This document shows positions 1 through 62,585 of a stretch of 64,000 nt of DNA, piece after piece (the first letter of the stretch is position 1; every line of letters begins with the position of its first letter). This stretch comes from an uncultured Candidatus Saccharibacteria bacterium (lineage in GTDB: Bacteria; Patescibacteriota; Minisyncoccia; Phycocordibacterales; PCTT01). The notes beneath the pieces were generated by a model. It had not been told where the DNA came from and searched no databases. It saw nothing but the letters and a program-made list of their open reading frames with translations. The stretch covers positions 46,529-110,528 of the forward strand of contig CAZMIM010000002.1 in NCBI GenBank assembly GCA_964566505.1. Direction: 5' to 3'. The position numbers and the translations under genes were made by a program.

Positions 1-44
1 TAGATTTGTGTCATTTCTTCTTTTGTTCCTAGTAGAAACTTCAT
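1..44 (-). CDS. rplC: 50S ribosomal protein L3, first 14 codons only (gene runs off the window start)
   Basis: The minus-strand ATG at 44 reads MKFLLGTKEEMTQI, like the conserved L3 N-terminus (M-x-G-L-L-G-x-K-x-G-M-T-Q-I). It lies downstream of rpsJ as in S10 operons. Confidence 0.45.
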   Translation of the reverse strand, partial: MKFLLGTKEEMTQI

Positions 45-45
45 T

Positions 46-78
46 GAAAATAAAAATATCACAGCCAAGCACTGTGAT
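46..78 (-). terminator. Hairpin plus U-run immediately upstream of the rplC start (candidate attenuator)
   Basis: The minus strand reads ATCACAG-TGCTTGG-CTGTGAT followed by ATTTTTATTTTCA and then the ATG. Confidence 0.4.
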
Positions 79-171
79 ACACGATAGTGTGTCCAGTGGT
101 CCGAAATGAGTAATTTCGTACATGGCGTATTTGTAGGAGGTACTATACACTATTCCTTTTTTTATGCAAGC

Positions 172-195
172 AAAAACCGCCCGAAGGCGGTTTTT
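172..195. terminator. Bidirectional intrinsic terminator hairpin
   Basis: AAAAA-CCGCC-CGAA-GGCGG-TTTTT; A-run and T-run flank a GC stem. Confidence 0.6.
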
Positions 196-307
196 GTTAA
201 TCAATAGATTATTATTGATTATATTCTAGTGAAGCGAGCGTACACAAGTTTACTTGTGATACCGAGCGAACGACGAATATATAAATCGTTATAATTGCTA
301 AGCAACA

Positions 308-331
308 TAAAAACCCCTTTAAGGGGTTTTT
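308..331. terminator. Bidirectional intrinsic terminator just downstream of rpsJ
   Basis: AAAAAA-CCCC-TTTAA-GGGG-TTTTT, about 30 nt after the rpsJ stop. Confidence 0.6.
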
Positions 332-361
332 ATGAAAAGCTATTGCTTTTTATAACGATTT

Positions 362-700
362 CTACATCATCTTCACATCGATGTTAACACCTGATGGAAG
401 TGATAGGTTTGTAAGTGCATCGATAATCTTTGCACCTGGGTTCACGATATCAATGAGTCGCTTGTGTGTTCGCATCTCAAATTGCTCTCGCGCATCTTTG
501 TGCACAAACGTTGAGCGATTCACTGTGTGCTTTTTGATTTCAGTTGGAAGCGGAACAGGACCTCGCACATGAGCATTAAGCTTCATAGCTGTATCCATAA
601 TCTGCTTCACTGAAGCATCGAGAATCTTGCTGTCGTATGCGCGTACACGCATTCGTAGCAATTGGGTTACTTCTTCTTTTTTCTTAGTAGCTGCGGTCAT
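362..700 (-). CDS. rpsJ: 30S ribosomal protein S10
   Basis: 112-aa ORF with the S10 core (VRGPVPLPT...HKDAREQFEMRTHKRLIDI). It follows tuf as in str/S10 clusters. Confidence 0.95.
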   Translation of the reverse strand: MTAATKKKEEVTQLLRMRVRAYDSKILDASVKQIMDTAMKLNAHVRGPVPLPTEIKKHTVNRSTFVHKDAREQFEMRTHKRLIDIVNPGAKIIDALTNLSLPSGVNIDVKMM

Positions 701-728
701 AAATAATTCTTCGAGTGAAACGAGTTAG

Positions 729-783
729 AGATTATTTATCCGCCTTAGTTTTATCTTTGATAAAAGTATGTGCGGATTCTCTA
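729..783 (-). promoter_or_regulatory. rpsJ 5'-UTR hairpin, member of a motif shared with the rplJ leader
   Basis: The minus strand reads AATCCGCACA..(inner hairpin TTTTATC-AAA-GATAAAA)..TAAGGCGGATAAATAATCTCTAA. It is preceded by TTGTGA-17-TATTAT. The same outer helix and 3' tail occur at 5104-5157. Confidence 0.5.
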
Positions 784-873
784 TAATATTTTACCATTGT
801 TGCCCTCACAAATTTTCGCTCCGCGAAACTTAGGAGGGCCTGTAAATTATGGTCGTTTCAACTCCCTAATTTA

Positions 874-2073
874 CTAGGCAACAACCTTTGTTACTACTCC
901 AGCCCCTACAGTCTTACCACCCTCTCGGATAGCAAACCGTTGCTTCTCTTCAAGCGCAACTGGTGCGATAAGTTTTACTTTGAAAGTAATAGTATCACCA
1001 GGCATAACCATCTCTGTTCCATCTGGAAGGGTTACGTCTCCTGTTACGTCTGTTGTTCGAATGTAGAACTGTGGCTTATATCCAGAGAAGAATGGTGTGT
1101 GTCGTCCTCCTTCTTCTTTAGAAAGAATATACACCTCTGCTTCAAACTCTGTGTGAGGATTTACTGAGCCAGTCTTTGCAAGAACCTGTCCTCGTGTAAC
1201 GTCCTCTTTCTTGAGACCTCGTAGAAGAATTCCTGCGTTGTCTCCTGCCATACCTTCTTGAAGTTGTTTGTTGAACATCTCCACTCCAGTAACAGTTGTT
1301 TTCATTGTGTCCTTGATTCCAACAATCTCAATCTCTTCTCCTACCTTTACGATTCCTCGCTCGATACGACCAGTTACTACTGTTCCTCGTCCTTCGATTG
1401 AGAATACGTCCTCGATAGGCATCAAGAATGGCTTATCAGTCTCTCGTTCTGGTGTTGGAATGTACTCGTCGATTGCCTTTGCAAGGTCAAGTACTTTCTG
1501 TGCCCACTCATCGTTGATGTCAGTTGCCTCAAGAGCCTTGAGTGCTGAACCTTTGATGATTGGTGCGTTCTCACCATCGAACTCGTACTTAGAAAGAAGT
1601 TCTCGAATCTCTTCTTCCACCAAGTCTACAAGCTCAGGGTCATCAACCATATCTACCTTGTTGATGAATACAATAATTTTTGGCACACCTACTTGTCGTG
1701 CAAGAAGGATGTGTTCTCGGGTTTGTGGCATCAAACCGTCTGTAGCAGCCACCACAAGTACGGCACCGTCCATCTGCGCGGCACCAGTAATCATGTTTTT
1801 AATGTAGTCTGCGTGACCTGGCGCATCAACGTGCGCGTAGTGTCGTGAAGGTGTTTGGTACTCTACGTGCGCAAGCGCAATAGTAATACCTCGAGCTTTC
1901 TCTTCAGGAGCGTTGTCGATTGCGTCAACACCCTTTCCTTGTGAAGAGTACCCGTCTCCAGCTATGTTAAGTACATTAAGAATAGCTGCAGTAAGTGTGG
2001 TCTTTCCATGGTCAACGTGGCCGATTGTACCTACGTTCACGTGTGGCTTTGACCGATCAAATGCATCTGCCAT
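874..2073 (-). CDS. tuf: Translation elongation factor Tu
   Basis: 399-aa ORF with GTPase motifs [14 protein letters not shown] and NKVD, and full-length EF-Tu similarity. Confidence 0.98.
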
Positions 2074-2250: not shown

Positions 2251-2264
2251 CACTTTTTATGAAC

Positions 2265-2293
2265 AAAAACCGCCCTATAAAGAGGCGGTTTTT
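2265..2293. terminator. Bidirectional intrinsic terminator
   Basis: AAAAA-CCGCCCT-ATAAAG-AGGCGG-TTTTT. Confidence 0.6.
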
Positions 2294-2317
2294 GAAATCA
2301 AAGGATTTTTGAGTTCC

Positions 2318-3170: not shown

Positions 3171-3788
3171 CTAAATACCTATCTTATTTAGTACTTTCTC
3201 ATGTGGAAACTCAAGAACATCTCGCACAAGCTTGTCATATACATTCATACGATACTGAAACTCATCAGTAGAAAATACTGCATACCTTAGCTCCTTCCCT
3301 ATCTCTGATTCTATCTTTCGAACGACCCTATCGAGAGCACCCTTCTTTATTTTGTCTCCCACAATAAGAAGGTCTACTCGTGAATCTGGAATCTGAAGAA
3401 ATACTCCTGAGATAATAACAAGCTTTGGAGCACCTGCTGGCTTAATACGGTCCAAAACCTCGAGTCTTTCATTTCGTCTTCCTTGTATAAGAAGCTTATG
3501 AAGCCCTGAAAGATACGGAAATGTTTTATCAAGCATGAAGCCATTTGTCTTTTGCTTCTTTGTTACCACTTCTTTTCCTTTCTTTTTCTTTACCTCTTTA
3601 TAAAATACCTTTGGTTTTATAAGACCAACCGATTTAAGCATGTTTACAACACGGCGTACCATATCAGTCTTCACCTGAGTTTTCTTTGAAATCATTTTGA
3701 TGTCATATGCTGTGCCCGGGTTAGACATAAAAAGTCGCATTATCTTCACTCGCGATACTCCACCAAATAGTTTTGCTAGTATTTCCAT
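3171..3788 (-). CDS. Hypothetical DNA-binding protein (winged-helix-like N-terminus, nucleotidyltransferase-like C-terminus)
   Basis: 205-aa ORF. The N-terminal segment VSRVKIMRLF...YDIKMISKKTQV looks wHTH-like, followed by a basic linker and a C-terminal DLLIVGDKI segment. This is a family-level guess only. Confidence 0.4.
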   Translation of the reverse strand: MEILAKLFGGVSRVKIMRLFMSNPGTAYDIKMISKKTQVKTDMVRRVVNMLKSVGLIKPKVFYKEVKKKKGKEVVTKKQKTNGFMLDKTFPYLSGLHKLLIQGRRNERLEVLDRIKPAGAPKLVIISGVFLQIPDSRVDLLIVGDKIKKGALDRVVRKIESEIGKELRYAVFSTDEFQYRMNVYDKLVRDVLEFPHEKVLNKIGI

Positions 3789-3912
3789 CCCGATAGTGAT
3801 AGGAACCGCTTATTAAGCGTTTCCGAAAATTAGTTTGTAAATTAAGTTTTTCATAAGACTTTAACTTATCCCGATATTTTGAGTATTCAAAAATAACTCA
3901 ATCACTATCGGG
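3789..3912 (-). promoter_or_regulatory. Structured 5' element X1: a 12-bp long-range helix whose 3' strand abuts the start codon
   Basis: CCCGATAGTGAT (3789-3800) pairs perfectly with ATCACTATCGGG (3901-3912). It encloses two hairpins and an internal near-copy, ATCCCGATA. The gene's ATG (3788) is directly adjacent. It is homologous in layout to 32930-33071. Confidence 0.45.
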
Positions 3913-3986
3913 ACCATATGTTTTGAGTATACACACGAGCACAGTGCTCTAAAAGTAGACAGCGTGTCTATATCAGTTTTTAATTC

Positions 3987-4012
3987 AAAAACCGCCCATT
4001 TGGGCGGTTTTT
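3987..4012. terminator. Bidirectional intrinsic terminator downstream of rplL
   Basis: AAAAA-CCGCCC-ATTT-GGGCGG-TTTTT. Confidence 0.65.
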
Positions 4013-4059
4013 GTCTGGTCGGTGTGTAGTGTAGTTCTCAAATTACCCAACCTACAGGA

Positions 4060-4581
4060 TTATTTAAGATTTACTGTACCTCCTGCTTCCTCAACAGCTG
4101 ACTTAATAGCCTCTGCGTCATCCTTTGATGCTCCTTCCTTGAGTGCAACAGGTGCTCCTTCTACAAGGTCTTTTGCCTCCTTGAGACCAAGACCAAGTGC
4201 AGCCTTAACGGCTTTGATAACACCAATCTTTGAATCACCAAATGATGCAAGCTCTACAGTGAATGAGTCTTTCTCTTCCCCTGCGTCACCTCCTGCACCT
4301 GGTGCAGCTACTGCAACAGCGGCAGCTGATACTCCAAACTTCTTCTCAAGTACTTTTACAAGTGAGTGAAGCTCGAGCACTGACATTGCTTCAATTTTTG
4401 AAACAATCTCTTCAAATTCTTTTGGAATCTCTACCTCTTCCTCTGCCTCTTCTGCAGGAGAGTCATCTGAAGATGTCTCTTCTGTAGCCTCAGCTGGAGC
4501 GGCTTCTTCTTCCTTTGTTTCTTCTGCAGTCTCGGGAGTAGTCTCCTCTACTGCTTCAGTGTTTGTGTTTTCTTCAGTCAT
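4060..4581 (-). CDS. rplL: 50S ribosomal protein L7/L12 with ~52-aa acidic N-terminal extension
   Basis: The C-terminal ~120 aa are canonical L7/L12 ([25 protein letters not shown]...[15 protein letters not shown]). The ATG lies 3 nt after the rplJ stop. Confidence 0.9.
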
Positions 4582-4584
4582 AAT

Positions 4585-5073
4585 TTATGCCTTACTCTCA
4601 GCGATTGCATTGATTACTCGTGCAAAACCGCTAATTGGTGAATTAATAATCTGTACAAATTGTCCTCGTAGAACATCAAGACCTGGAATCTGTGCAATCT
4701 CTGTGATTTCCTCTTTTGAAAGAAGTTTCTTTTCAAATACTCCACCGACTAGTGCAATATTTTCCTTGTACTTCTTTTGGAACTCATAGATTTCGCGAGC
4801 AGAACCAGTTTCATCATCTGAGTATGCAATAGCAATCTCTCCATCAAGTGCTGGTGCCTCTCCTTCAAATGAAGTGTCAGCGAGCGCTCGGTGAATCAAA
4901 CTCTTCTTTGCAACATAGTATGATACTCCGCTATCTCGAAGCGCACCTCGCATAGCAGTTGTGTCATCTACATTAAGTCCGTGAAAGTTCACAAACGCAA
5001 TAGAAGTAGCATTCTCAAATATATCTTTGAGTTTTGAAACAATCTGTTCTTTTTTCTCTTTTGTAATTGCCAT
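4585..5073 (-). CDS. rplJ: 50S ribosomal protein L10
   Basis: 162-aa ORF with L10 similarity (VNFHGLNVDDTTAMRGALRDSGVSYYVAKKSL). It directly precedes rplL. Confidence 0.9.
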   Translation of the reverse strand: MAITKEKKEQIVSKLKDIFENATSIAFVNFHGLNVDDTTAMRGALRDSGVSYYVAKKSLIHRALADTSFEGEAPALDGEIAIAYSDDETGSAREIYEFQKKYKENIALVGGVFEKKLLSKEEITEIAQIPGLDVLRGQFVQIINSPISGFARVINAIAESKA

Positions 5074-5103
5074 AAATAATTTCTTAATGAGCGAAGTGAA
5101 TTT

Positions 5104-5157
5104 AGAAATTATTTATCCGCCTAAGTTTCCGAAGGAAAATTTGTGCGGATTTTCTAA
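5104..5157 (-). promoter_or_regulatory. rplJ 5'-UTR hairpin, second member of the motif shared with the rpsJ leader
   Basis: The minus strand reads AATCCGCACA..(inner hairpin TTTCC-TTCG-GGAAA)..TTAGGCGGATAAATAATTTCTAA. The outer helix and tail are conserved; the inner hairpin differs in sequence but still pairs. Confidence 0.5.
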
Positions 5158-6721: not shown

Positions 6722-7852
6722 ATGAAAAAGATTCTTTGGTGGATTGCACTCTTGGCACTCGTGCCGATGTTTGCAACCGCCCAGCAGATGGAGTACACCA
6801 GCACGGAAAAATTTCCTGTCGGTGAACACGAAGCTCCTGTAAGCCTCAGGACAGAACTGCGCGACGCTGTGTGCGGAGAAATCCGTGGCGAAGCGCACGT
6901 TATTGTACGAGGACACTACGACAGTCGTGAATACCCACTGGACAACCATGATCAGCAGTTCTTTTTAGGGCTCAGACGTGGTGCTGATGTAGCTCAATAC
7001 ATGGAACGCGTGTGCGCAATGCACAGAAGCAACTTCTCAGTACAGAGCTCATTTGCGCCCGGTGATCCGGACGACCCTCAAGGGAACGAGTCCAGAACAG
7101 TCACAATCATTTGGGGATTCTCAGATACTTCAGACTTCCAAACGGCTCAAGACTCCTACAACATGGACCTGGAGGACTTCTTCAACGAATTCCTCAATCC
7201 TTGGAAGGAGCTTGATCTTGCAAACCAGGCAGAAATGCTTGAGATTATGCGTTCTGTTGATGAGAAAATGATTGCATCGCAACTACAGCTTGCAAACATC
7301 TCTCGTCAAATCGATGAGCTTGCAGCCATGTCATGGAAACTCCCTCGCTGGAGCTTCCAGACCGGCATGCAGTTCTCGAGCAAATTTGGAACTGGCTTCA
7401 CCTTCTCGCTTTGTCGTAACTACTTTGACCAGAACATCGACTTCTGCCTCAAAGCATTTGCGGAAAACGAAAGCCACGAAGCACAAGCACTGCACCGCCC
7501 CTACCCTAATCAAGAAGTTCTTCATTGGGGAAAGTGGTACAGTGCCTCACTCATCATCAGGCCGTACCTGAAGAGCTTGGGCGAAAGTGCTCGAATCTTC
7601 ATGGACCTCGGTATCGGAGTAGCTCACGTGAACTACAATGGACCTCCGGACAAAAGCATCGGATACAACACTACCGGCATCATGCCCTCGATCGGATTTG
7701 GTCTCAAAACCAGATGGCGTTCGTGGGGGCTGGAGTTCGTAGGTACCGAGGAAGTCTGGATGTTCCCACAAGGCGTGGTGCTCCCGTCTTTCGAAGATGG
7801 TGACTACCATGTGAGCCTAGCTGGCTCTTTTGCTCTTTCGTATCATTTCTAG
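6722..7852 (+). CDS. Secreted OmpA-like (peptidoglycan-binding) protein with beta-barrel-like C-terminus; compositionally foreign
   Basis: Signal peptide MKKILWWIALLALVPMFATAQQ. OmpA_C-like pattern VRGHYDS...LGLRRGADVAQYM...NESRTVTIIW. The C-terminus ends ...SFALSYHF (terminal Phe, as in the OMP beta-signal). G+C is visibly higher than in the flanks. Confidence 0.6.
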   Translation: MKKILWWIALLALVPMFATAQQMEYTSTEKFPVGEHEAPVSLRTELRDAVCGEIRGEAHVIVRGHYDSREYPLDNHDQQFFLGLRRGADVAQYMERVCAMHRSNFSVQSSFAPGDPDDPQGNESRTVTIIWGFSDTSDFQTAQDSYNMDLEDFFNEFLNPWKELDLANQAEMLEIMRSVDEKMIASQLQLANISRQIDELAAMSWKLPRWSFQTGMQFSSKFGTGFTFSLCRNYFDQNIDFCLKAFAENESHEAQALHRPYPNQEVLHWGKWYSASLIIRPYLKSLGESARIFMDLGIGVAHVNYNGPPDKSIGYNTTGIMPSIGFGLKTRWRSWGLEFVGTEEVWMFPQGVVLPSFEDGDYHVSLAGSFALSYHF

Positions 7853-45859: not shown

Positions 45860-46339
45860 ATGAATGAAATCCAACAAATAAAACAACTTATAGAGGAAAC
45901 ACTAAATAAGATGGGTATTTCATACACATCAGTATCTGTTGTTGATACAGAGCTTCCTGACTACACTAAGTTTGATATTGAAACACAAGAGAGTGGAATG
46001 CTTATAGGAAAAGATGGAGAACACCTGTCAGCGCTATCTTTTGTTTTGAGAAAGATGCTTGAGAAGCAGTTTGATACCCAAGAAACACCACGATTTTATA
46101 TTGATATTGGAGGATACCAAAAAACAAAAATTGAGAAGATTCAAAAAGTTGCAAAGATTATGGCAGAAAGAGCAACTTCGTTTAAGCGAGATATAGAACT
46201 CCCACCAATGACAGCGTACGAGAGAATGGTTATACATTCTACTCTCAAAGAAATGCCAAACATTGAGACAGAATCACAAGGAAAAGGAAGAGATAGAAGG
46301 ATTTATGTTCGCTTCAAAGAAGAAACACCCATTATTTAA
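45860..46339 (+). CDS. jag: Jag/KhpB-type RNA-binding protein (KH + R3H domains)
   Basis: LIGKDGEHLSALSFVL (KH-like) and LPPMTAYERMVIHSTL (R3H). The start is placed at MNEIQQIK, right after the yidC stop. Confidence 0.8.
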   Translation: MNEIQQIKQLIEETLNKMGISYTSVSVVDTELPDYTKFDIETQESGMLIGKDGEHLSALSFVLRKMLEKQFDTQETPRFYIDIGGYQKTKIEKIQKVAKIMAERATSFKRDIELPPMTAYERMVIHSTLKEMPNIETESQGKGRDRRIYVRFKEETPII

Positions 46340-46362
46340 AAAACCGCCAGAGGCGGTTTTTT
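46338..46362. terminator. Bidirectional terminator between jag and the convergent T4SS-like operon
   Basis: AAAAAA-CCGCC-AGA-GGCGG-TTTTTT. Confidence 0.65.
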
Positions 46363-62375: not shown

Positions 62376-62401
62376 TTTTAGGGCTAAAAATAGCCCTAAA
62401 A
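62376..62401. terminator. Bidirectional terminator
   Basis: TTTTAGGGCTA-AAAA-TAGCCCTAAAA. Confidence 0.55.
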
Positions 62402-62406
62402 TACTA

Positions 62407-62435
62407 TTGACATAAATATATTAAATTAGTATAAT
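62407..62435 (+). promoter_or_regulatory. Consensus sigma70-type promoter P1
   Basis: TTGACA-17 nt-TATAAT, a perfect match to both hexamers. Confidence 0.6.
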
Positions 62436-62464
62436 TGGGTATCCACAATCAATTATTTAATCCA

Positions 62465-62493
62465 TTGACAGTATATATGCTTTGGATTATAGT
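62465..62493 (+). promoter_or_regulatory. Near-consensus promoter P2, 58 nt downstream of P1
   Basis: TTGACA-17 nt-TATAGT. Confidence 0.55.
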
Positions 62494-62585
62494 CGATTGT
62501 ACATAGCTTGATATAACGATTTGTACGGAATATGTGGCTCAACAAAGCCACATTGATATTTGACCGCTCAACATAGGAACGATTA

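Follow-up and report, generated by a model that had tools for sequence, protein, structure and literature searches.

A conserved leader with its own promoter upstream of rplC in Paceibacteria, a candidate attenuator of ribosomal-protein genes

To our knowledge, the regulation of the largest ribosomal-protein gene cluster is largely unknown in most bacteria beyond some Gammaproteobacteria. The Candidate Phyla Radiation (CPR) is a very large, almost uncultured group of bacteria with reduced genomes and unusual ribosomes. We analyzed the spacer between rpsJ, encoding ribosomal protein S10, and rplC, encoding ribosomal protein L3, in a stretch of 64,000 nucleotides from contig CAZMIM010000002.1 (the whole stretch is hereafter called the window). 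The source group of the window is Patescibacteria (CPR), Paceibacteria/Parcubacteria; its S10 shares 85% identity with the S10 of a metagenome-assembled Candidatus Campbellbacteria genome, the next matches come from Taylor-, Nomura- and Paceibacteria, and PF00338 (Pfam) was found on homologues of the rpsJ product. The spacer is best read as an operon boundary followed by a regulated leader, and the leader is a concrete candidate for control of the S10 cluster in the CPR. Because the window ends within rplC, the remainder of this gene and its operon were read from the loci of relatives (compared loci are given L numbers), in which rplC is followed by rplD, rplW, rplB and then a gene on the opposite strand. 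The genes at the junction and the parts of the leader are as follows.

362-700, minus strand: rpsJ, 112 amino acids, taken from the list of open reading frames (ORFs); its stop codon TAG is at 364-362
45-361, minus strand: rpsJ-rplC spacer, 317 nt
169-142, minus strand: rplC promoter P2, with -35 element TTGCAT (169-164), N16 and -10 element TATAGT (147-142)
131-89, minus strand: leader core, matched by covariance model R1 with 33.1 bits (E 3e-7)
98-70, minus strand: predicted antiterminator, from the minimum free energy (MFE) fold of the nascent transcript
46-80, minus strand: leader terminator (putative attenuator), GUAUCACAGU-GCUUG-GCUGUGAUAU at 80-56, followed by the U-run UUUUUAUUUUC at 55-46
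1-44, minus strand: start of rplC, with ATG at 44-42 and no Shine-Dalgarno sequence; the gene continues beyond the window

The translation of rplC begins MKFLLGTKEEMTQI, which is also the N-terminus of L3 in L001. A preliminary description of this DNA had placed 317 nt between the two genes, and we confirmed the coordinates 45-361. It had also called S10 and L3 normally adjacent. This holds for the non-CPR loci fetched by the same query, in which the spacer ranges from -4 to 203 nt (median 24), but not for CPR-like loci, where spacers span -4 to 3569 nt with a median of 142 nt and 72 of 103 are 100 nt or longer. Long, even gene-bearing rpsJ-rplC spacers are the rule in the CPR lineage, and the arrangement in the window is unexceptional there.

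A promoter of the form TTGCAT-16-TATAGT had been proposed upstream of rplC from the window alone. The same type of promoter, TTGC(A/T)N-N16/17-TAnAnT, was present upstream of the leader core in all 20 leader family members examined, at a distance of 4-36 nt from the core (72 nt in L082). Over promoter and core together, window and L165 show 78% identity, and their S10 proteins are 84% identical. Judged from these recurring motifs, rplC very probably has its own promoter throughout the leader-bearing group. In another part of the window (62400-62520, plus strand), a single intergenic region holds two tandem promoter-like sites, TTGACA-N17-TATAAT/TATAGT. These canonical sites indicate that the general -35 element of this genome is TTGACA, whereas the rplC leaders all use TTGCA(T/A). 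TTGCAT shares only three of six positions with TTGACA, which explains why a generic promoter and terminator scan missed promoter P2 as well as a second, promoter-like site in the spacer (P1, described below); for these features the scan was replaced by pattern counts and a terminator detector built for this analysis.

The leader core was defined with covariance model R1, which was built on 13 aligned cores and has 40 positions and 11 pairs; whole leaders aligned too poorly with MAFFT for RNAalifold to be used, and the covariance model and per-sequence folds were used in its place. R1 matched 21 Patescibacteria (Paceibacteria) loci in about 1 Mb of fetched DNA, 20 of them with E <0.01, plus L082 (E ~0.1-0.6). 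All of these matches lie on the sense strand just upstream of rplC (the sequence of L004 stops about 35 nt past the match, before rplC), those with E <0.01 once per locus, and six of the matched loci (L004, L094, L098, L164, L165 and L167) were outside the seed of the model. When the window was searched with filters off, 131-89 was the sole hit and the runner-up scored 11 bits. R1 also gave one weak match (17.5 bits, E 0.18) in L006 (2673-2718, plus strand), some 1.3 kb before rpsJ and presumably just upstream of tuf, which is probably due to chance.

In the window, helix P1 of the core consists of C125-G93, C124-G94 and A123-U95, and U122 is left unpaired on the 5' side. Helix P2 follows, with G121-C99, U120-A100, the mismatch A119.G101, C118-G102, the stem GAAAU/AUUUC and a loop at 112-108; on the 3' side, C98, A97 and C96 are unpaired. 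Across the family, helix P1 is (N)C(C/U)A paired with UGG(N), followed by one unpaired base on the 5' side. Helix P2 has an invariant G-C and U-A, usually an A.G mismatch (C-G, A-U or U-A in a minority) and then C-G, and is closed by a variable stem-loop, 6 to about 60 nt long; the three unpaired bases of the 3' side are C(A/U)(A/C). On an alignment fitted to R1, standard pairs occupy 84% of the core cells, against at most 50% when the partners are slid. Double changes were found at five core pairs, and none of 500 column shuffles reached the observed covariation score. An AUG inside the core was considered as an upstream start codon and rejected, as most relatives have AAG or ACG at this place.

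The family is kept across loci whose S10 proteins are 66-85% identical to that of the window. The leader of about 100 nt seen in the preliminary description is a conserved element: 20 other Paceibacteria loci have its promoter, core and terminator in front of rplC. Like known ribosomal-protein leaders, it is a conserved structured RNA of the 5' untranslated region associated exclusively with one ribosomal-protein operon. We are highly confident that the element is a conserved leader that acts in cis and has its own promoter.

The core is followed by the leader terminator, which had first been noticed as an ATCACAG-n7-CTGTGAT hairpin with a U-run before the rplC AUG. The hairpin at 80-56 has a 10-bp stem with three G-C pairs (-12.6 kcal/mol, z -4.5) and was found by both the generic scan and the purpose-built detector; with its U-run at 55-46, the element ends one base before the rplC ATG. 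A terminator-like hairpin lies less than 60 nt after the core in 17 of 19 family members. Its stem shows compensatory changes, being AUCACAG/CUGUGAU in the window and L001 and GUCGUAG/CUACGAC in L167, and it is G+C-rich in L164. In a broader comparison, 61 of 112 CPR-like loci and none of 38 other bacterial loci had a terminator-like hairpin within 100 nt upstream of rplC.

Folding of nascent transcripts, ended before the 3' arm of the leader terminator is made, gave an alternative structure. In the window, C98-G70, A97-U71, C96-G72, U95-A73, G94-C74, G93-C76 and A92-U77 pair around a small hairpin to form the predicted antiterminator. The nascent RNAs of the window, L165, L164, L001 and L167 all folded into an antiterminator, in each case from different sequences, and in L019, L086 and L088 it is even the MFE fold of the full-length leader. 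The antiterminator pairs the 3' strand of helix P1 and adjacent bases with the 5' arm and loop of the leader terminator, and helix P1, antiterminator and leader terminator are predicted to be pairwise exclusive. Complementarity between the 3' strand of the core and the downstream region was stronger than in shuffles in 16 of 17 members, as judged by a negative z (mean z -1.4). The description of the leader as attenuator-like gains from these predicted alternatives and from the covariation seen in the core.

Based on these predictions, we propose the following mechanism. Promoter P2 would start a unit of rplC, rplD, rplW and rplB. A ribosomal protein encoded in this operon, when in excess over free 23S rRNA, would bind the helix P1/P2 core and keep the UGG strand in helix P1. 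With this strand held, the antiterminator at 98-70 would be blocked, the leader terminator at 80-56 and its U-run would form, and transcription would stop in vivo before rplC. When the protein is absent, the antiterminator would form first and RNA polymerase would read through. Since the hairpin lies 1-14 nt from an AUG lacking a Shine-Dalgarno sequence, translation initiation might be lowered as well. Overall, we consider it probable, with moderate confidence, that the leader is a protein-dependent attenuator of this kind. The core is just 40 nt long and has a clear predicted switch, which makes it amenable to in vitro study with recombinant proteins.

Several observations weigh against attenuation. 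The L021 hairpin has no U-run, and that of L088 is below the stability threshold. The antiterminator complementarity of the window taken alone is not significant (z -0.98). Helix P1 has only 3-4 bp, with its outermost pair mismatched in 8 of 19 sequences, and the fit of the alignment to R1 inflates the pair count of the core. The U-run, moreover, could be an A/U-rich ribosome landing site in place of a terminator tail.

This last point leads to the alternative that the leader is only a translational operator or stability element, in which the core binds a ribosomal protein, control is exerted on translation initiation or mRNA decay, and the U-run serves as an S1-type landing pad. Shine-Dalgarno-like motifs (GGAG, GAGG or AGGA) were found upstream of 5 of 47 long ORFs in the window, against a background of 8%; Shine-Dalgarno sequences are thus essentially unused in this genome, which would suit this alternative. 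In the window, L001 and L164, the hairpin is close enough to the AUG to be reached by an initiating 30S subunit, its stem in the window is weak and A/U-rich, and in L021 the hairpin has no U-run. The E. coli leader serves uL4 both in attenuating transcription and in repressing translation (PMC10931766). In L005, L093, L094, L098, L013, L015 and L167, however, the hairpin and U-run lie 70-170 nt before the AUG, yet directly after the core; at this distance the hairpin is too far away to occlude initiation, so translation cannot be the sole mode of control. In addition, the U-run abuts the stem in 17 of 19 members, and the conserved antiterminator logic would have no role in a purely translational operator. 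We regard this alternative as unlikely.

Among known systems, the closest comparison to protein-dependent attenuation of rplC is the S10 operon of E. coli, which uL4 attenuates and represses through its leader (PMC10931766, PMC3616713); the uL4-interacting leader RNA is confined to some Gammaproteobacteria (PMC3616713, PMC10931766). Both elements are 5' leaders of an operon containing rplD, both have a protein-binding structure followed by a weak hairpin and U-run near the first start codon, and both are expected to work by the same logic, in which excess ribosomal protein favors termination (PMC10931766, PMC3616713). The window leader differs in that it lies downstream of rpsJ, after two terminators, leaving S10 outside the controlled unit, which apparently comprises only rplC, rplD, rplW and rplB. 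In addition, an explicit antiterminator is predicted here, whereas the E. coli element has been described as a pause that depends on NusA and is stabilized by uL4. Of the properties of an E. coli-type S10 leader, we found the terminator near the first start codon, but neither the position upstream of rpsJ nor similarity in sequence or structure.

In B. subtilis, binding of L20 picks between mutually exclusive antiterminator and terminator folds, the type of mechanism predicted for the window leader. The leader of infC-rpmI-rplT, which is subject to L20-dependent transcription attenuation (PMC1865079), resembles the window leader in that a ribosomal-protein operon is under transcription attenuation by a structured leader. 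Protein, operon, structure and phylum all differ, and that system has been tested experimentally, whereas the window leader is predicted. As the tests of position and sequence fail, the leader lies outside the E. coli S10 and B. subtilis L20 families.

A precedent for the position before rplC exists in Archaeoglobi, where an L4 leader candidate was reported upstream of rplC and rated as uncertain ('?') by its authors (Eckert and Weinberg 2020, PMC7247131). In the light of this precedent, the preliminary description's comparison with the S10 leader controlled by L4 is reasonable. As in the window, the archaeal motif is structured and stands immediately before rplC-rplD-rplW-rplB, and L4 was proposed on the same prior grounds. 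It is archaeal, however, and did not match the window (E up to 10) or the 17 family loci (gathering score), from which we conclude that its structure is unrelated.

With Rfam 15 at gathering thresholds, the window gave tRNAs only; region 1-900 gave only sub-threshold terminator look-alikes at E up to 10, and 36 related loci (17 of the leader family and 19 more) gave no family match. Rfam 15 also gives no match on E. coli's own S10 leader (L172), and the negative scan can for this reason not exclude a uL4-interacting RNA. In the literature searched, no ribosomal leader was reported in Parcubacteria. Among ribosomal-protein leaders, a known class, the element is best described as a new family and a new placement.

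As the unit in relatives is rplC-rplD-rplW-rplB, the candidate ligands are uL3, uL4, uL23 and uL2. We tentatively favor uL4, by analogy to the E. coli S10 leader and the Archaeoglobi L4 candidate, and from one weak resemblance to rRNA. The 5' strand of the leader in L164 and L165, AGCCACGUAC, agrees at 9 of 10 positions with E. coli 23S rRNA 332-341, AGCCCCGUAC, which comprises the 3' strand of H20 and the GUA junction. This site lies inside fragment 281-359, the primary uL4/uL24 binding fragment of E. coli 23S rRNA (PMC6426284). The likeness has p 0.028 within the fragment but is not significant over the whole 23S rRNA (p 0.54). The 3' strand of the core had no significant match in the E. coli 23S comparison, a search of E. 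coli rRNA with R1 returned nothing above 7.5 bits, and the best ungapped match between the leader and the E. coli S10 leader was 8 of 10 positions (p 0.44). All fetched DNA was also screened for rRNA of the window's own lineage, and none was present.

Two other leader types occupy the same junction in loci of other CPR lineages. Type B consists of GTTAACTT, a variable hairpin with compensatory changes, (A/G)TAACAACATTGCC and a terminator GGGCAA..GCCC with a U-run, the 5' arm of which is complementary to ATTGCC. It was found in L109, L118, L123, L131, L133, L135, L137 (e.g. 2342-2415), L152, L157 and L158, often 110-190 nt after rpsJ and without a promoter. Type C is an aaaaCCGGG-yttag-CCCGGtttt hairpin in the last ~80 nt before rplC in other CPR lineages (L023, L024, L026, L028, L035, L036, L112, L127, L143 and L153). 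Both share with the window leader the rpsJ-rplC position and a plan of conserved strand, variable covarying hairpin and terminator, with complementarity between the conserved strand and the 5' arm of the terminator. In sequence and fold they are unrelated to it, and they would often be co-transcribed with rpsJ; like it, they are absent from Rfam.

A far-reaching interpretation would make at least three structurally unrelated classes (A, the window type, with B and C) uL4-responsive attenuators. Feedback on the S10 cluster would then have moved from before rpsJ to the rpsJ-rplC junction in Patescibacteria, type A would be a circularly permuted mimic of H18/H19/H20 of 23S rRNA through its CC-N-GUA-C strand, and S10 would stand outside ribosomal-protein feedback. 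S10 doubles as the transcription factor NusE. We consider this interpretation rather doubtful. A still more speculative addition is that a window-specific RNA of about 95 nt with a GUAUCACA arm modulates the attenuator in trans.

The part of the spacer upstream of promoter P2 contains the following features.

332-308, minus strand: terminator 1 (T1) of rpsJ, UAAAAACCCCUUAAAGGGGUUUUUA (-19 kcal/mol, z -5.6)
361-283, minus strand: extended 79-nt hairpin that starts one base past the rpsJ stop and has T1 as its tip
305-276, minus strand: putative promoter-like site P1, TTGCTT-N18-TATATT, directly after T1
196-275, minus strand: inter-terminator segment, with hairpins at 262-240 and 221-198
195-172, minus strand: terminator 2 (T2), AAAAACCGCC-UUCG-GGCGGUUUUU (-17.7 kcal/mol, z -4.2)

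Both terminators had been recognized in the preliminary description, one right after rpsJ and the other at 195->172, and both have the predicted properties of intrinsic (Rho-independent) terminators, with a stable G+C-containing stem-loop and a U-tract at the 3' end of a gene. T1, which the purpose-built detector found, has an A-tract, a CCCC/GGGG stem and a U-tract; given its symmetric sequence, it could act bidirectionally. The generic scan missed T1 and T2 probably because their A/U flanks lengthen the stem and use up the U-tail. The basal stem of the 79-nt hairpin has 12 bp, AAAUCGUUAUAA/UUAUAACGAUUU (361-350 with 294-283), and the region 361-165 folds with -69.5 kcal/mol (z -9.4 against shuffles). 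T1 is homologous to the terminator that follows rpsJ in L164 (78% identity over 69 nt). The 12-mer of the basal stem occurs as an exact inverted pair at this one place only. A mobile-element origin of this inverted repeat was rejected, since a single 11/12 match, within chance, was the only sign of additional copies.

T2 lies 2 nt upstream of the -35 element of promoter P2, and a terminator hairpin abuts the -35 element of a TTGC promoter in L165, L146 and L014 as well. Near-copies of T2 end three other genes in the window (2262-2294, 3986-4013 and 46339-46361), indicating that T2 is of the genome's normal terminator type. From the predicted structures, transcription of rpsJ would end at two successive intrinsic terminators, forming an operon boundary, and T2 would insulate rplC against read-through. 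The prediction of rpsJ as a separate transcription unit, together with a junction that tolerates inserted genes, bears on operon prediction and on how the syntenic ribosomal block is used in binning and phylogenomics.

A small transcription unit had been suggested between the two terminators, and we considered segment 305-172 as an independent small-RNA gene, in which P1 drives a two-hairpin RNA of about 95 nt ending at T2. The part of this idea that holds is that the promoter-like match is statistically unusual. P1 and promoter P2 are the only matches to TTGCWT-N16-18-TATADT on both strands of the 64 kb, where 0.36 are expected; the two sites are less than 140 nt apart, in a spacer with about 0.001 expected chance matches, and each stands directly 3' of a terminator. 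The inter-terminator segment is well folded (-16.4 kcal/mol, z -3.5), and the predicted transcript would end at a strong terminator. By direct reading, GUAUCACA is common to the first hairpin of the segment and the 5' arm of the leader terminator, and this hairpin could in principle pair in trans with the 3' arm of the terminator.

The N18 spacer of P1 is atypical, however, as all 20 conserved rplC promoters have 16-17 nt, and the long T1 hairpin takes up the -35 element and spacer of P1 in its 3' arm. In L165, the nearest relative that shares the tandem-terminator layout, the two terminators are separated by only about 50 nt that hold no promoter, and L164 and L001 have a reverse-strand gene at that place. 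No sequence similar to the segment was found elsewhere in the window or in the 170 loci, L165, L164, L001 and L167 included. T1 together with P1 also resembles the module of second terminator and promoter in L165 (75% over 56 nt), a resemblance that fits a relic of local duplication equally well and suggests that the module arose in this way. An independent small-RNA gene is thus improbable, and the segment may be a lineage-specific small RNA or a relic. A 29-aa ORF at 306-217 (MLLSNYNDLYIRRSLGITSKLVYARFTRI) was rejected as coding, because it starts inside T1 and contains P1.

The junction differs in content among relatives. L001 (4602-5060) and L164 (4151-4609) have an ORF of 152 aa on the minus strand, and L166 (3980-5116), L167 (2960-4078) and L169 (2210-3328) have one of 372-378 aa; no Pfam match was found for either. 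The inserted ORF of L169 adjoins an RVT_1 reverse transcriptase (3714-4763, minus strand) and bAvd (4767-5117), and by this gene content looks like a diversity-generating retroelement (DGR) cassette. The window and L165 have no inserted gene. The junction is an insertion hot spot among the relatives of the window. The spacer as a remnant of the 152-aa or 372-aa genes was rejected, as blastn and tblastx against the relatives matched terminator, promoter and leader parts only.

Differing cargo and spacers of 3 to 3569 nt would also fit an unregulated insertion scar, in which terminators and promoter merely restore expression after gene gain or loss and the leader has no sensing function. Against this, promoter, core and terminator stay with rplC whatever is inserted, they are conserved over loci whose S10 has diverged to 66-85% identity, and the leader shows compensatory changes. 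A plain promoter, moreover, needs neither a structured core of about 40 nt nor a terminator before its own gene, and we regard the scar as distinctly improbable. Weakest is the idea of a small-molecule riboswitch or other sensor of something besides ribosomal protein: a conserved core, alternative pairing and a terminator are an architecture generic to riboswitches, but with about 11 pairs and a 1x3 internal loop the core is very small. It is present in a single copy per genome window, before rplC only, and matches no Rfam riboswitch, and exclusive association with ribosomal-protein operons is a hallmark of ribosomal-protein leaders (PMC7247131); we consider such a sensor very unlikely indeed.

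Upstream of rpsJ lies the following gene.

874-2073, minus strand: tuf, taken from the ORF list

At 173 nt, the tuf-rpsJ spacer (701-873, minus strand) is longer than in L001 (about 60 nt) and in L164 (9 nt). It holds a promoter-like TTGTGA-17-TATTAT (811-783) and a GCCCUC...GAGGGC stem, which suggests that rpsJ may be monocistronic and preceded by a leader of its own. Upstream of tuf (2294-2074, minus strand), the layout resembles that before rplC: a terminator at 2294-2262 is followed by a promoter TTGACG-16-TATGAT at 2250-2223. The tuf leader of about 150 nt starts with a hairpin and U-run (2216-2197, ACGUACACGAGAUUGUGCGU CUUUUU) and has a long hairpin around 2145-2100; from these motifs it may be a second attenuator.

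At the other end of the unit, the S10 cluster of L164 and L165 is broken after rplB by an opposite-strand gene (L164 7534-8004 and L165 7291-7797, minus strand). In L164 this gene is zf-dskA_traR-like, and a T1-like terminator lies 3' of rplB (7393-7460). Short repeats resembling GCGGACTTACGCAGACTAAACGC were observed in intergenic regions of L001 (3945-3985), L162 (446-475), L167 (2690-2730 and ~4470-4520) and L168 (385-430); the L167 repeats are placed after the leader terminator and before rplC, and the units are a candidate small dispersed repeat.

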